DNA of 64,000 nucleotides from Escherichia coli O127:H6 str. E2348/69 (GCF_000026545.1 NC_011601.1), one strand, 5' to 3'. Shown: positions 44,801 to 62,800, counted from the first letter of the stretch. A program made the numbers.

Positions 44801-47800
44801 GCTTCCTTTCGCATCGAGAAACGAGATTAACGCCTCGCCGGTCCCCAGTTCCTGGATTGCCTTTTCGGTATCAAACGCCGGATTGGCCCGCATGGTTTGC
44901 GCCGCAGCTTTTACTGCTTTCTGATCTTTGGGCGTAAAAGCCCGCAAAGCGTGTTGAACGCGATTACCGAGCTGGCCGAGCACATTATCCGGAATATCAG
45001 ACGGGTTTTGCGAAACGAACCAGACGCCCACGCCTTTTGAGCGAATAAGCCTTATCACCTGCTCAATCTTATCCAGCAGTACCTGCGGTGCGTCATTAAA
45101 CAGCAGATGCGCCTCGTCGAAGAAAAACACAAGTTTTGGTTTCTCCAGATCGCCCGCTTCTGGCAATTGTTCATACAACTCTGAAAGCATCCACAGCAGG
45201 CTGGCGGCGTACAGTTTAGGCATCTGATAAAGCTTTTCGGCGCTGAGGATATTGATAACGCCTTTACCGTTAGCATCGTTGCGCATCCAGTCTTTGATAT
45301 CCAGCATCGGCTCGCCAAAGAAATGCGCCGCACCTTGTTGCTCCAGCGACAGTAATCCGCGCTGGATGGCACCAACCGATGCGCTACTGATATTTCCGTA
45401 CTGATTCTGGAAGGATTTGGCGTTATCGCCGATGTACTGGGTAATCGCCCGCAGATCTTTAAAGTCGAGCAGTAACAGCCCCTGATCGTCAGCAATACGG
45501 AAGATGATATCCAGCACGCCAGATTGCACATCGTTGAGATTCAGCAGTCGCGCCAGCAACAGCGGGCCCAGATCCGAAACCGTCGCCCGCACCGGATGGC
45601 CTTTCTCGCCAAAGATATCCCACACCACCACCGGATTGGCATGCGGTTGCCAGTCGTTGACGCCGATATTTTTCAGTCTTGCGAGCAGTTTTTCCGACGC
45701 CTTTCCTGACTGCGCGATGCCGGTCAGATCGCCTTTCACATCGGCCATAAACACCGGAACACCGATTTCCGACAATGACTCTGCCAGTTTTTGCAGCGTG
45801 ACAGTTTTACCCGTCCCCGTTGCGCCAGTAATCAGCCCGTGACGGTTAGCCATTCCCGGCAGTAAAAACAGTTCTGTGTCCGGCGTGCGGGCAATTAACA
45901 GGGGTTCGCTCATGAGATTTCCTCCAGTTTCCTGCCTGGAGTATAGGCAACGGCTGCGCACTCTTCACCGCTAAATTCAGCAGATTGCGAGATGCCTTCC
46001 AAAGAGATTTAAGTGCCGGGCGACAGGCACCCGGCAAAGGGATCAGAAATCGGCTTTCAGAACCACGCGATAACGCGCCTTACCGTCGCGCACATGCTGG
46101 ATGGCGTCGTTAATTTTCGACATCGGGAACAGTTCGGTAGTCGGCGCAACCTTGCTGCGGGCGGCAAAGCGCATCAGCTTACGCAACTCATAAGGTGTAC
46201 CGGTAGCAGAGCCAGAGACACTGCGATCGCCCGCAATCAGCGTAAAGGCCGGAACCGGCAACGGCGTGAGAACCGCACCGACGGTGTGGAAATTACCGCC
46301 ATACGTCAGCGCCTCAAAATAAGGCTGCCAGTCGAGGCTGACGTTGACGGTGTTGATAATGAGATCAAACTGCCCCGCCAGTGCTTTCAGTGCCTGTGGA
46401 TCGCGGCTATTCACCACTTTATCGGCACCCATCACCAGCACTTCCTGCTCTTTCGCCGGATTAGAACTAAAGGCTGTCACCTCGCATCCCATTGCGTGCA
46501 GAAGTTTTATAGCTATATGCCCCAGCCCGCCAATACCAATTACCCCAACGCGGCTGGTGGCAGTGATATGGTGCATCAACAGCGGTTTAAAGACCGTGAT
46601 ACCGCCGCACAACAGCGGTCCGGCAGATTCAATGTCGATATTTTCTGGCAGTGGAATCACCCATTGCCAGTCCGCACGCAACTTCTCGGCAAAGCCACCG
46701 CGATTCATAATCGTCGGCACCGCACCTTGCTCGCAGTTGATCTGATTACCGCTAATACAGGCATCGCAATGCCCGCAGCTGCGTGCCGTCCAGCCAATCC
46801 CGACACGCTGACCGACCTGCAAACCTTTATCCTGCGCGGCACTCCCGAGCGCCACTACGCGACCAATCACCTCATGCCCGGCAACCAGTGGATATTGTGA
46901 AAATCCCCATTCGTTATCGATCATTGACAGATCGGAATGACAGATCCCGCAGTAATCCACCTGCACTTCAACATCTTGTGGCTTCAGTTCACCGGGATCG
47001 TACTCATAAACTTCCAGTTCGCCGCCCGCTTCTTTTGCGGCATAGCTTTTTATCATCGACATTTTTTGGTCCTTCTCTGGTGTGGTCTGGGAAGTGTAGA
47101 GCATGGCAGGGCGGGGTGCCTGGAGTGTGACAAAGGTTACACATCGCGGTATGCAATGCTGAAAATTTCAGCACTTAGCGAGGTGCGAGCAAGCTGGCGC
47201 TTGCATGGTGGCGTGCGACAGGTATAATCCACAACGTTTTCCGCATACCTCTTCAGTGCCGAAGTGGCGAAATCGGTAGACGCAGTTGATTCAAAATCAA
47301 CCGTAGAAATACGTGCCGGTTCGAGTCCGGCCTTCGGCACCAAGTCACTAAATTTCTTACAATACAATAAGTTAGGAAATAAAATCTATCTCTTTTGCCT
47401 GTAAGAAATGCTCTGTTATGTCCCTTGAAAAAGCCGCTGTGGTTGATAGTGGTAATTGGGATGTTAACTCATAGCGGCGTGTAGTTCCAAGCGTCAAACA
47501 CGTACTGACTCAACTTGAAAGCTATGACGTAGCCACCGTCTCTAAACAATCCCAAAAACTTTTAGTGAAGCGCATTTTAGCCCGATGCCCCCGTTCTGTC
47601 GCCGTCGCGAGACGCCGCAGGGGATAAACAGGTTTATGGTGGTCACGGTACTTGCAGACCATATGCAAGCTCTGCCAGCGGTTCGGCCTCGCTCCCCTTG
47701 GGTACATGGTCATCCTGATAAGCCTCACTAACTGACATAACTGTGATGTAGTCGCCAGAGGCTCCGCTTGTTGTCTTACCACCAACGGGGCTTATGACTT

Positions 47801-59800: not shown

Positions 59801-62800
59801 GCTGCGCCTTGCGTCTGCCGTTCTGGATCACTGCCACCGAACCGGGCGCGTGCGTGCTGTGGTGCATCGTTCTGCTAACGCTGCTGAGGGAGGCCGCTAC
59901 GTTGGGCGGACGTGTGGTGTTAGCGTTACGAATCTAAGGGCTATGATTGGCAGCTATCGCAAGCAATACACTGGTATTGGCATGTTATATCCATAACTGC
60001 GGGGTAATAAACCCCGCCGAAATAGTAGCGTAGCCACTCAAACAGGAATGTTGTAGTAATGACAAATTGCATTAGTTAGTAGAGCTGGTGCAGCAGACGC
60101 TGCAATATTTAGCGTCCCCGCATATGCTTTACCAATCATATTTACAACCCACTTCCCAAGGCTATCACTGAAATTGTCCGGGGTAGTTGGGGCGGGTGAT
60201 TCTTGTATAGCTTGATGAAGGCTCTTAATATCTTCATCATTAGCGCCCCAATCCTTGAGCTGCTTTTCAAGCGAGTTGAAGTCTCCAGCGTTGACAGTAT
60301 TATTTTGTGAAATGTCCCCGTTACCAGAGCCAATAACGCCAGCATTGTTTACGTTGCCATGAATGTTGGTCACGTTATGGACAGTCATTGGCGCTACCTC
60401 TTTTTCTCTTAATGAAAACTGTAACCCTTCGCCTAAAATACCCTTTGACTCTAAGTCTAAAGACCAGTCGAGGATCTTATTCCTAACGGTAGTAATTACA
60501 TGTTCTAGTACACCAGCGCTTATAACCCATACCATCTCAGTCTTTTGTCCGATACTTTGAGCTAATGTATCAGCCATCCAATCCGGGAGAGGTAAAAAAG
60601 GGTTTTCTCCTTTATTGCTCATCTTTTTTATAGATGATATTGATTCTGTAATGTGAAACGTTGATACCATTGCATTTAATTCCGCGTCGTTGAAGTTGAC
60701 CACAAGCGGAACCCAGCTCTGATGTTGGGGACTATATGCTTTTAACTGCGATTGACCTTTCCTGTATTCAGGAACCGTATCAAAGCTGGGATAGCCATTT
60801 AATTCGAGCTGTATCCACTCGGTCAAATCGCTGAGGCCGAGCTTCACTGCAATCATTTTGGCCTTCATGAGTACAGATAAAATGTCGGAGTCGGGATCGC
60901 ACGCTAGTGCTTGAAGTTCAAGAACTGGTGAGTTAGCCATATCAAGACCTTAGTATTGTTTTGATAAGGTATCTTACCCGCATCGAACCATGCAGTCTAA
61001 GGTTCGCAGGCCAAACTCACCCATGAGTTAGATGTTTATTCCTTCATGCTGGATGAGTTCGACATACTTACCGATCTCTATAGGGGAAGCTGCATTTTTC
61101 GAGTAAGTTTTGAAGCTCTCTGTACTCCCGCGCTCATGACCGACGAGCAGGGCAATACGATCTTCTGGCACTTGAGCACGGTCGAGCTGTTGCACAAAAG
61201 CATGGCGGAGTGAGTGAAACACTTTTCTCTCTGCGGCAGGCTCGCCAAGAGCTTTACGCTTTGCTCGCGTGAATTGCTGCGTATGCCACGTTGAGCGCTT
61301 CCCATCGGCCCGGTCTGTTATTGATGCGTGATAGAACAGAAAACCGCTATGTGTGGTCTTGAGCAATGACTTCACGAGAGGGATTATCTTGCTGTGTACA
61401 GGGACGATTCGCGCCGCGCTCTTAGTCTTCCCCTCGGTGATCTCAAAGCACAATATACCCTCGATAGTTTTAATACTGCTTTCACGTAGCGTACATATCT
61501 CATTGATCCGCATACCGCTGTATGCACCAATAGCCGTTACCGCCTTCATCTCGTCATCAAGCAAGGCATAGACCTTTGCCAGCTCTCCCGGTGCGAAGAC
61601 TTCATAGCTGACCTTGCTGCTTTTTGCTTCGAGCGCATGACCGCGCCAAGGATTGTCCTGTGGTGCATCGTGATAGCGATTGCGTGCCAGATCCCATATC
61701 TGCGCCAGTGCGCTTATATAGTTTTGGATAGTTTGGGGCGCTCGCTCAGTTTTGAGCTTATCTAACCAGCCTGTAACTATGGTTCGGTTAATATCCCGCA
61801 ACTGAACATCTTTCTTTTTCAAGTGGGTTAACAGCACCTCTACGGCTTTGTTGGTCTTGGATAACGTGGTTAGCTTTCGCTTCTCGCTGTATTGAAGCAG
61901 GTACAAATCACGCATTTTTAGCAAGGAAGGGCAAGCCTGAATCGATGCACCAAACGATGCGGGGGCTTCCTTGGCGTACACACTGACACGGCGTAGCTCA
62001 TCAATGATTTGGTCTACAGATGAGCCGCCTTGTGGCTTTAGCAGATTCCGTAAGCGAGTCCATTCCAGAGCAATAGCATCTCGAAACAATCGCGCTTGGC
62101 GTATGTCTCGTGTTCCTGTGCTTTTCATAAAGTAGCGCTTCCCTTGGAACAGGTGGCGCATATAGCTGGGAATAGCTATCCGCACGAGGTAATTCCCGCA
62201 GGGATCTAAAACTAGATAACGATCTCTCTTGAAACTCATACAAACCCCGGTTATGTTGTCGGGGCTTTTTCATGGCTAAACAGTCTGTGAAATGTGCCGG
62301 GGTCATGAGCTTTAGTCTAGCTAGTTCAACAAGTTAACGATGATTGTTGAAGCAAGCTAAGTCGCTATAACCCGTGCCGGTTCGAGTCCGGCCTTCGGCA
62401 CCACATCGTATGCAAATCGAGTCGCTCAAGGGCGGCTTTTTTTGTGTCTGGGATCCATTAGTTACCTATCTTTCTCGCTATTTTAACTCTCTCAGAGCCA
62501 ACCAATTTCAACCCATCGCAAACGAAAAATGTTGGTACAGGCGTTGGTATTTTCGGTTCGATATTAATTTGTATTAGCTCAGTCCTGATCTGACAGCTAT
62601 CTGCCAGATCAGGTTCGGATTAATACATTATATCTGCCCGCCTACACCTTTAAACTTCTCAATAAACGCGACGATCTTCTGGAAAACCGTCTGTTTTTTC
62701 GTCTTATATTGCGGGTTTAACGGACTGAGTTTTGGCAATGTCTCGTTTAATTCCGTGCCATTTTCGGTGGCGTATTCGCGTTTTAAAGACGTGCGAATAT

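Follow-up and report, generated by a model that had tools for sequence, protein, structure and literature searches.

A chromosomal island at leuX of Escherichia coli E2348/69 as a probable satellite of virulent T7-like phages of the Bonnellvirus group

Introduction

The 64,000-nucleotide stretch of the chromosome of Escherichia coli O127:H6 strain E2348/69 analysed here (the window; GCF_000026545.1, NC_011601.1) holds an island of 15,061 bp next to the tRNA-Leu gene leuX. The island combines an integrase, a helicase, nucleases and exchangeable cargo with a T7-like major capsid gene, a shortened scaffold-like gene, a non-coding DNA block shared with Bonnellvirus phages and a cluster of motifs that resemble promoters for a phage RNA polymerase. 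Taken together, these features are best explained by an integrated satellite of virulent Autographiviridae of the Bonnellvirus type that is induced by the RNA polymerase of its helper, a reading that is considered probable. Helpers of this type are T7-like podophages of about 42 kb that encode their own RNA polymerase.

Boundaries of the island

The boundaries are defined by the sole tRNA called by ARAGORN and a copy of its 3' end:

47258-47342, + strand: tRNA-Leu(CAA) (leuX), by ARAGORN, Rfam tRNA and sequence; its last 31 nt (47312-47342) form the left attachment site, attL
62373-62403, + strand: right attachment site, attR, the second copy of the 31-bp tRNA 3' end, by exact sequence match

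The direct repeat, CGTGCCGGTTCGAGTCCGGCCTTCGGCACCA, is exact over 31 bp at both positions, and weaker similarity reaches 58 nt. Since an exact copy of such a 31-mer is not expected randomly within 15 kb, the repeat is not a chance occurrence. An initial annotation, made by reading the sequence, had placed an island of about 15 kb between an intact tRNA-Leu and a perfect 31-bp repeat, and both the ARAGORN call and the exact repeat bear this out. The island is 100% identical in three assemblies of E. coli O127:H6 E2348/69, the same attachment sites are found in its relatives, and the G+C content falls to about 41-46% in both of its cargo regions. Directly to the right of attR, the type I restriction gene hsdR occupies the minus strand from 62628 onward, and in the relatives L007-L009 a second tyrosine recombinase follows attR. 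Tandem islands are therefore present at leuX, as a 2025 preprint describes for this site, where other satellite-like defence islands, with AlpA and an HUH Rep and without a capsid gene, are stacked at the same tRNA-Leu.

Head genes

Two genes in the right half of the island relate it to podophage heads:

57350-58345, + strand: major capsid protein of the T7-like/podophage type, 331 aa, by PHROG, PDB, BLAST and clade analysis
55897-56577, + strand: truncated scaffold-like protein, 226 aa, by BLASTP and hhalign; two genes upstream of the capsid gene and kept in both lineages of the family

The initial annotation had recognised no capsid, terminase or tail genes. For terminase and tail this stands, as none were found in PHROG scans of the island open reading frames (ORFs) or by tblastn against three Bonnellvirus genomes; for the capsid it does not, because the product of 57350-58345 matches the major head protein family phrog_267 (E 3e-64) and solved podophage capsids with values up to E 9e-78, and shares 56% identity with the Bonnellvirus glasur capsid along its entire length. 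No other island protein has a tblastn match in the three Bonnellvirus genomes. The dN/dS ratio of the capsid gene among islands is 0.13-0.18, and the protein is therefore maintained by purifying selection. In a search of 5.8 billion proteins, the capsids at least 58% identical to it were all island-borne among those examined, and the matches of at most 56% identity lie in phage contigs of about 42 kb beside tube and nozzle genes. In agreement with this division, a rough neighbour-joining tree groups the island capsids in one clade, next to that of Bonnellvirus.

The C-terminal ~100 aa of the 226-aa protein can be aligned over their whole length with the last ~100 aa of the Bonnellvirus scaffolding protein (411 aa), with 31% identity by BLASTP (E 1e-4) and a probability of 79% by hhalign (E 1.6e-5). 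As these alignments are shallow, they lend the homology to a phage scaffold moderate support. PHROG scans of the island ORFs recovered no lysis genes, protease or head-tail connectors.

A non-coding block shared with phage ends

The matches between the island and 50,697 phage records in a megablast comparison were of three kinds: they fell in a cargo gene that P2-like phages also carry, in a short part of the capsid gene and in a non-coding block of about 200 bp. The block and the region to its left are as follows:

51608-51813: non-coding block common to Bonnellvirus phages, by megablast and phage mapping
50885-51607: island-specific conserved non-coding region, 87-94% identical in the Trabulsiella, Kosakonia and L018 islands

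The block matches 15 phage records; all that were checked are Bonnellvirus, and the remainder have the same size of about 42 kb. Identity to the phages is 83-87% over 51608-51813 and 94-98% over the part that starts at 51635 or 51649, and the right edge of all matches is identical, at 51813. While Bonnellvirus capsids are 92-100% identical to each other (published table), the island capsid reaches only 56%, which makes the near-identity of a non-coding block remarkable. An uncultivated phage from IMG/VR, UViG_2751185941 (42,657 bp), carries the block at about 98% identity to E2348/69 over ~110 bp, and its upstream sub-block matches the variant of the Kluyvera island. These matches imply that islands and phages exchange block DNA, or that they co-evolve closely.

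The position of the block within the phages is set by one genome from which the ends are known, J8-65, the only phage record with annotated terminal repeats (259 bp). According to an alignment of J8-65 with glasur, the block lies about 100-330 bp inside the left repeat and before the early sigma-70 promoters; it is thus located just inside the repeat, and the possibility that it is the terminal repeat itself was rejected. In the island, the conserved region 50885-51607 occupies the place of the terminal repeat relative to the phage block. A separate observation concerns Cronobacter phage RZ4 (L006, LC778449), which has an exact terminal duplication of 121 bp that falls inside the early region, unlike the repeat of J8-65, and is probably an assembly overlap and not a pair of true ends.

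Promoter-like motifs for a phage RNA polymerase

Within the shared block, the minus strand carries the motif GAAAG-NNNC-TATAGTG. This motif occurs at five homologous places in each Bonnellvirus genome, two of them inside coding DNA:

Site 1: upstream of the replication genes
Site 2: directly after the RNA polymerase gene, before the structural genes
Site 3: at the start of the second gene after site 2
Site 4: inside the gene for an internal virion protein, ahead of the tailspike, terminase and lysis genes; form ..CTACTAAGG
Site 5: near the left end, leftward

The 4-nt core of the motif varies in concert within each phage:

glasur and RZ4: TGAC at all five sites
Kc261: CTAC at all five sites
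IMG/VR phage L023: TGTC at each of its three sites
J8-65: TAAC or TATC

A concerted change of the core that includes the sites in coding DNA is what would be expected of promoters read by a co-evolving phage polymerase, and the motif also resembles the promoters of SP6 and T3. The island holds four motif sites within 260 bp, which cover all four core classes:

51768-51783, - strand: leftward site GAAAG-TGTC-TATAGTG inside the shared block, core TGTC (the variant of phage L023)
51825-51841, + strand: rightward promoter-like site, core CTAC
51953-51969, + strand: rightward promoter-like site, core TATC
52011-52027, + strand: rightward promoter-like site, core TGAC, 123 bp upstream of the helicase start codon

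The three rightward sites belong to the subtype ..CTAnTAAGG, as does the phage site at glasur 34241. Elsewhere in the window the motif pattern has two matches, and the background expectation is about 0.01 per 260-bp stretch. All rightward sites are kept in five of the six type-A relatives examined, and the Kluyvera island keeps two, one of them with the core CATC; the leftward core also differs among islands and may be TGTC, TGAC, CTAC or CATC. In addition, a promoter scan found no sigma-70-like promoter on the + strand between 50277 and 55878, which agrees with a main operon that is silent without phage. The transcript expected from the leftward site was considered as a structured RNA and is unconvincing in this role, with a fold z-score of -2.2 and no Rfam family. 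The contig of the uncultivated Bonnellvirus-like phage noted above (L104, IMGVR_UViG_2751185941_000001) has TGTC-type promoters identical to the leftward site of E2348/69 and is a candidate natural helper.

Further genes and cargo

The remaining features of the island are listed from left to right:

47343-47806: conserved left arm, non-coding in RefSeq; 95-99% identical in the Kluyvera, Enterobacter and Kosakonia islands
47807-49901: cargo slot 1, with ORFs 47860-48408 (+), 48478-48948 (+) and 49160-49852 (-)
50315-50884, + strand: small serine recombinase of the resolvase/invertase type, a core gene; phrog_125, E 5e-55
52150-53994, + strand: RecQ-family superfamily 2 (SF2) helicase, by NCBIfam, PADLOC and PDB searches
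54032-54469, 54466-54675, 54672-54848, 54845-55408, 55408-55641 and 55654-55893, + strand: six small core genes
56717-57130, + strand: helix-turn-helix (HTH) slot gene with a C-terminal HTH; Pfam HTH_23, E 0.001, and PHROG HTH matches
58362-58871, + strand: HNH endonuclease of the homing-endonuclease type; phrog_99, E 3e-53; Pfam HNH_3, E 3e-18; PADLOC HEase
58890-59315 and 59299-59598, + strand: two small core genes, no family found; kept in relatives
59571-59996, + strand: endonuclease VII-like protein of the junction-resolving nuclease family; phrog_423, E 1.4e-15; Pfam Endonuclease_7 on relatives
60038-60940, - strand: cargo slot 2, here an AbiTii abortive-infection protein; PADLOC AbiTii, E 2e-48
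61028-62239, - strand: tyrosine integrase; phrog_1, E 3e-35; 94-98% identical in relatives

Most of the enzymes named in the initial annotation were recovered at these positions, including the tyrosine integrase at the distal end, the serine recombinase in the middle of the island (a DNA invertase by phrog_125) and the SF2 helicase, whose RecQ-like core lies at aa 261-588. The serine recombinase is not debris of a mosaic but a conserved core gene, present in all relatives and in a second lineage of the family. For the proposed HNH-AP2 endonuclease, the HNH domain is secure and an AP2 domain was undetected by Pfam. The serine recombinase gene is preceded by a sigma-70-like promoter at 50248-50277 according to the promoter scan, and a search for an invertible segment found inverted repeats at chance level only.

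The N-terminal 260 aa of the helicase form a family-specific domain with 14 matches in 1.84 billion representative proteins, which indicates that the island family is narrow; an AlphaFold model of this domain was unusable (predicted local distance difference test, pLDDT, 43). The helicase is presumed to be a replication protein. It is also matched over its full length by PADLOC PDLC02858 "DpdF" (918 bits), and the NCBIfam DpdF model scores 124 against a cut-off of 550. As this score is under the cut-off and no other dpd gene accompanies the helicase, a Dpd (7-deazaguanine) defence system was rejected; defence-finder pipelines may nevertheless mislabel the island helicase as a Dpd component. 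The six small genes are kept in relatives with mosaic alleles, and their products have no PHROG family except for a marginal HTH match (phrog_3855, E 0.002) of the 187-aa product. This product is predicted to be a helical multi-HTH protein with three HTH-like bundles (AlphaFold pLDDT 81), and its predicted structure has no significant fold match in PDB; PDB sequence searches with the 187-aa and 141-aa proteins likewise returned nothing meaningful. In total, about ten small island genes are without a functional match in the family and structure searches.

Both cargo slots vary among relatives. The content of slot 1 is swapped, with DUF3800 and Rap1a among the alternatives, and its cargo in E2348/69 has no Pfam or PADLOC match. 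The 230-aa minus-strand gene of this slot (region 49160-49992) has 83-84% nucleotide identity by megablast to P2-EC53 and R18C, and the counterpart in P2-EC53 is annotated as "putative lysogenic conversion protein"; the same cargo gene therefore circulates between the island and the hotspots of P2-like phages. The 156-aa ORF at 48478-48948 is unannotated in RefSeq, and no PHROG or PADLOC family was found for it. Slot 2 holds restriction-modification (R-M), TIR or YafO genes in relatives; the cargo across copies comprises AbiTii, type II R-M, TIR, YafO, DUF3800, Rap1a and NmeDI with a methylase. The AbiTii protein of Kluyvera ascorbata ATCC 33433 (L012, 12692-13591) is 100% identical to that of E2348/69, with 92.5% nucleotide identity for the whole island, and this sequence identity points to a recent exchange between the genera.

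Distribution and size of the family

Of 5,426 complete E. coli genomes, 59 carry the core of the island (51300-59996), and 52 of these carry at least 80% of its length. Outside E. coli, related islands occupy tRNA-Leu(CAA) in Kluyvera ascorbata, Enterobacter chuandaensis, Trabulsiella odontotermitis and Kosakonia sp.; these are 92-94% identical in nucleotide sequence over most of the element, the same divergence as among the E. coli copies and far above the genome-wide identity between these genera. The gene order is constant and reads left arm, slot 1, serine recombinase, control region, helicase, six small genes and scaffold-like gene in the first half, followed by the HTH slot gene, capsid, HNH, two small genes, endonuclease VII, slot 2 and integrase in the second. 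A second lineage shows this architecture as well; it is found in Enterobacter hormaechei and in metagenomes, and its identity is 58% in the capsid and 33% in the N-terminal domain of the helicase. Similarity to the island core was also seen on a plasmid (NZ_CP182204.1, 240 kb), where a region with a DEAD/DEAH helicase (201940-204692) is partially similar (89%).

The element length is 14.6-15.7 kb (about 16.1 kb with an insertion sequence), although the cargo is unrelated. As the length is held while the cargo varies, a packaging limit is suggested. The size ratio of the island to a 42-kb helper equals that of SaPI1 to 80alpha and of P4 to P2.

The islands also differ in their control regions. 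Those without the leftward-promoter block (Trabulsiella, Kosakonia and L018) carry a different, 115-aa allele in the HTH slot, which separates the scaffold-like gene from the capsid gene; because the allele is replaced in islands that lack the block, the sequences hint that the slot protein may read the block. Of the block, the Kosakonia island retains a 48-bp core only, with a rightward site of the CTAC type after it. The 15,229-bp Logan contig L018 was considered as a circular form of the element and rejected in this role, since it breaks at the 31-bp repeat.

A satellite induced by a phage RNA polymerase

In the proposed life cycle, the tyrosine integrase would hold the island at leuX until infection, when the single-subunit RNA polymerase of the helper would recognise the one leftward and three rightward sites of the island. 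The four cores match four promoter classes of helper lineages and would thereby widen the helper range. The polymerase would transcribe the operon from the helicase gene to endonuclease VII, including the scaffold-like, capsid and HNH genes, and replication of the island could be performed by the RecQ-like helicase, by the phage replisome, which can fire at promoter-type origins, or by both. The island capsid and shortened scaffold would then combine with the portal, core, tail and terminase of the helper to give small heads with a predicted T=4 geometry. By simple scaling, a T=7 head that holds 42.3 kb corresponds to about 18 kb at T=4 and about 12 kb at T=3; a 15-kb genome would fit T=4, because these capacities, which follow from arithmetic and established geometry, give a filling about as in the small head of P4.

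By analogy with T7, the packaging or origin signal may be the phage-identical block that adjoins the terminal repeat in the phages. T7 replicates and packages any plasmid with a T7 promoter-origin, the pac site and the terminal repeat, as summarised in a paper that cites the original work (Chung and Hinkle, 1990), and T7 polymerase paused at the concatemer junction recruits terminase. More speculatively, the serine recombinase, which has its own host-type promoter, might recircularise or resolve injected DNA as Cre does for P1, and the HNH protein and endonuclease VII might either process concatemers of the island or be directed against the helper. Transfer in such particles would mobilise the defence genes of both cargo slots, which would benefit the host.

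Several points weigh against this life cycle. The junction expected of a circular form (attP; right end, repeat, left end) was unmatched in viral and metagenome contigs, in exact or degenerate form, and we infer excision, replication, packaging and transfer from the features described above. No portal, terminase (including its small subunit) or tail gene was found by PHROG scans or by tblastn against the three Bonnellvirus genomes. The promoter function of the motifs is deduced from their position, their concerted variation and the resemblance to SP6 and T3 promoters, and the rightward repeats could be replication iterons. An E. hormaechei island of the second lineage (L015, 2931-3336) has 11 tandem copies of such a repeat, ..TAC-TAAGG-nGAG.., spaced 33-41 bp apart, with conserved flanks and a variable middle, in an array that partly overlaps the 3' end of a pRha-like ORF; another island has one copy upstream of the operon. 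This array could be a promoter array, a set of replication iterons or a polymerase sponge, and the promoter and iteron readings are compatible because T7 promoters themselves serve as origins. Furthermore, no known phage matches the control region of either the Trabulsiella-type island or the second lineage, the shared block adjoins the phage terminal repeat, to which no similarity was found in the island, and the satellite model gives no route by which the integrase would be induced.

A different proposal takes the island as a phage-triggered defence locus that is not transduced and spreads only by other routes. The phage polymerase promoters would switch on a decoy capsid, a truncated scaffold and the nucleases, which would poison the assembly and DNA processing of Bonnellvirus. 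A dominant-negative assembly poison would account equally well for the promoter array and for the divergent capsid and scaffold genes, the two nucleases and the known defence cargo suit this proposal, and the scan of viral and metagenome contigs for the attP junction found no packaged or circular forms. It is nonetheless regarded as unlikely, because it leaves unexplained why ~200 bp of non-coding phage-end DNA beyond the promoter are kept at 87-98% identity, why the element stays near 15 kb although its cargo changes, why almost the same island is found in five genera and why a helicase/replication module and an integrase belong to the core genes.

A history without a present phage function is less probable still. 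T7-like phages that carry an integrase exist, LUZ100 being an example, and the capsid, scaffold fragment, endonuclease VII, HNH and promoters are all phage-like, so that the island might be a temperate T7-like prophage which decayed and was stripped of its polymerases, portal, tail and lysis genes. This is quite improbable given that all ORFs are intact with the capsid under purifying selection, that the compact 15-kb architecture is kept in the 59 E. coli genomes, four other genera and the second lineage, that no remnant of an RNA polymerase, DNA polymerase, portal or tail was seen in any relative and that the capsid clade is exclusively island-borne. An Autographiviridae prophage as such was rejected, since the capsid alone has a tblastn match in the three Bonnellvirus genomes and phage polymerases, portal, tail tube and terminase are missing. 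The idea of a generic integrative element that gained functionless phage DNA by chance recombination takes its appeal from the mosaic nature of the island and its cargo exchange with P2-like phages; it is the remotest of the three, as the phage-like parts make up the conserved core and not the variable part, the block variants and promoter cores correspond to different phage lineages from island to island, and four motif sites in 260 bp as opposed to two in the rest of the 64 kb are not a chance outcome.

A helper-induced satellite is consequently preferred. Its fullest version would be the first satellite family of virulent T7-like coliphages, in which a promoter array that covers several helper lineages senses infection, a natural "T7 phagemid" with its own capsid and shortened scaffold uses small heads and phage-end DNA for replication and packaging, and defence genes are moved between enterobacterial genera. 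With all of its parts taken jointly, this version is proposed more tentatively than the satellite reading as such and falls a little short of being probable.

Comparison with known satellites

The general features of satellites are present, as the element is without a full set of virion, packaging and lysis genes, has an integrase with attachment sites and carries cis and trans features that match one helper group. The known classes were considered in turn. A P4-like satellite was rejected because sid, psu, delta, epsilon, alpha and alpA were absent from PHROG and NCBIfam results and the helicase is RecQ-like, unlike P4 alpha. A classical phage-inducible chromosomal island (PICI) or Staphylococcus aureus pathogenicity island (SaPI) was rejected in view of the missing matches to AlpA, Stl, primase and small terminase and of an integrase gene at the distal end. 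A capsid-forming PICI (cf-PICI) was rejected since a T7-like capsid and an HNH protein are present but portal, protease and connector are not. A PICI-like element (PLE) was rejected as PHROG and PADLOC scans gave no homologues of its large serine recombinase, RepA, TcaP and NixI, and host and helper differ. The evidence thus favours the initial annotation in its choice of class, namely a phage satellite or integrative element that carries anti-phage cargo and belongs with neither P4 nor the classical PICIs, and no described, fully annotated element was found to match the island; the scaffold-like gene, the helper group, the phage-end block and the promoter array had been overlooked.

Each of these systems nevertheless shares part of its logic with the island. 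Like the island, cf-PICIs are chromosomal satellites with their own capsid in a separate clade, take the remaining virion parts from the helper and are near-identical across genera. They differ in that they possess a complete module of the HK97 type for head formation and packaging (capsid, protease, portal, connectors, small terminase/HNH) and take only the tails of temperate siphophages, whereas the helper of the island would be a virulent podophage. The PLE of Vibrio cholerae, with the helper ICP1, is comparable in its virulent helper, its silence until infection, its use of helper structural proteins, its small capsids, which are formed via the satellite scaffold TcaP, and its nucleases against the helper; its gene set is unrelated, it has no capsid gene, it integrates by a serine recombinase with a myovirus as helper, and induction through promoters for a helper polymerase is absent from its biology. 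The P4 satellite, with P2 as helper, has about one third of the helper size, T=4 heads, a helicase replicon and a defence-gene hotspot; one island cargo gene is common to P2-like phages, and P4 also integrates at leuX. In contrast to the island, P4 lacks a capsid gene and depends on a temperate helper without a phage RNA polymerase.

In SaPIs, the satellite protein CpmB has in common with the helper scaffold only the C-terminal end that binds the capsid, and SaPIs and PICIs pair a satellite of about 15 kb with a helper of about 43 kb, sizes that agree with those considered here; the island differs in that it supplies the capsid protein too and has no Stl/AlpA regulation, pri-rep or small terminase. 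T7 phagemids, in which a phage promoter/origin and concatemer-junction sequences lead to replication and packaging (Chung and Hinkle, 1990, as summarised in the citing paper), offer a parallel to the promoter and adjacent phage-end DNA of the island, but they are artificial and include the terminal repeat itself, whereas the island is without a recognisable repeat and adds head proteins, integrase and cargo. The virophage mavirus of Cafeteria, with the helper CroV, is a silent integrated parasite whose genes bear the promoter motif of the helper virus and are thereby induced by its transcription machinery, although this system is eukaryotic and its proteins are unrelated. The closest systems in logic are the cf-PICIs (own capsid), PLE (virulent helper), SaPI CpmB (mimicry of the scaffold end) and provirophages (helper promoter motif). 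In the literature searched on satellites with Autographiviridae, Bonnellvirus or T7-like helpers or with a phage RNA polymerase, no such element was found, most subscription journals being outside this coverage. The island most likely represents a new satellite family, novel both in its group of helpers and in the logic of its induction.

Implications

Among virulent phages, the T7-like group is the classic example of speed and autonomy and has found wide use in therapy and biotechnology, and the element described here resides in the prototype strain of enteropathogenic E. coli, E2348/69. If the satellite reading is correct, a satellite that reads the promoters of its helper needs no repressor or antirepressor, and only a phage with the right polymerase would induce it. 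Interference with the helper and strain-specific resistance to Bonnellvirus therapy phages would be predicted; a compact natural chassis for T7-type transducing particles would also become available. Four cores in one control region, together with their turnover between islands, make the co-evolution of promoter and polymerase between a parasite and its helper testable. For the enterobacterial hosts, such a satellite would offer AbiTii, R-M, TIR and other defence genes a means of travelling among Escherichia, Kluyvera, Enterobacter, Kosakonia and Trabulsiella.

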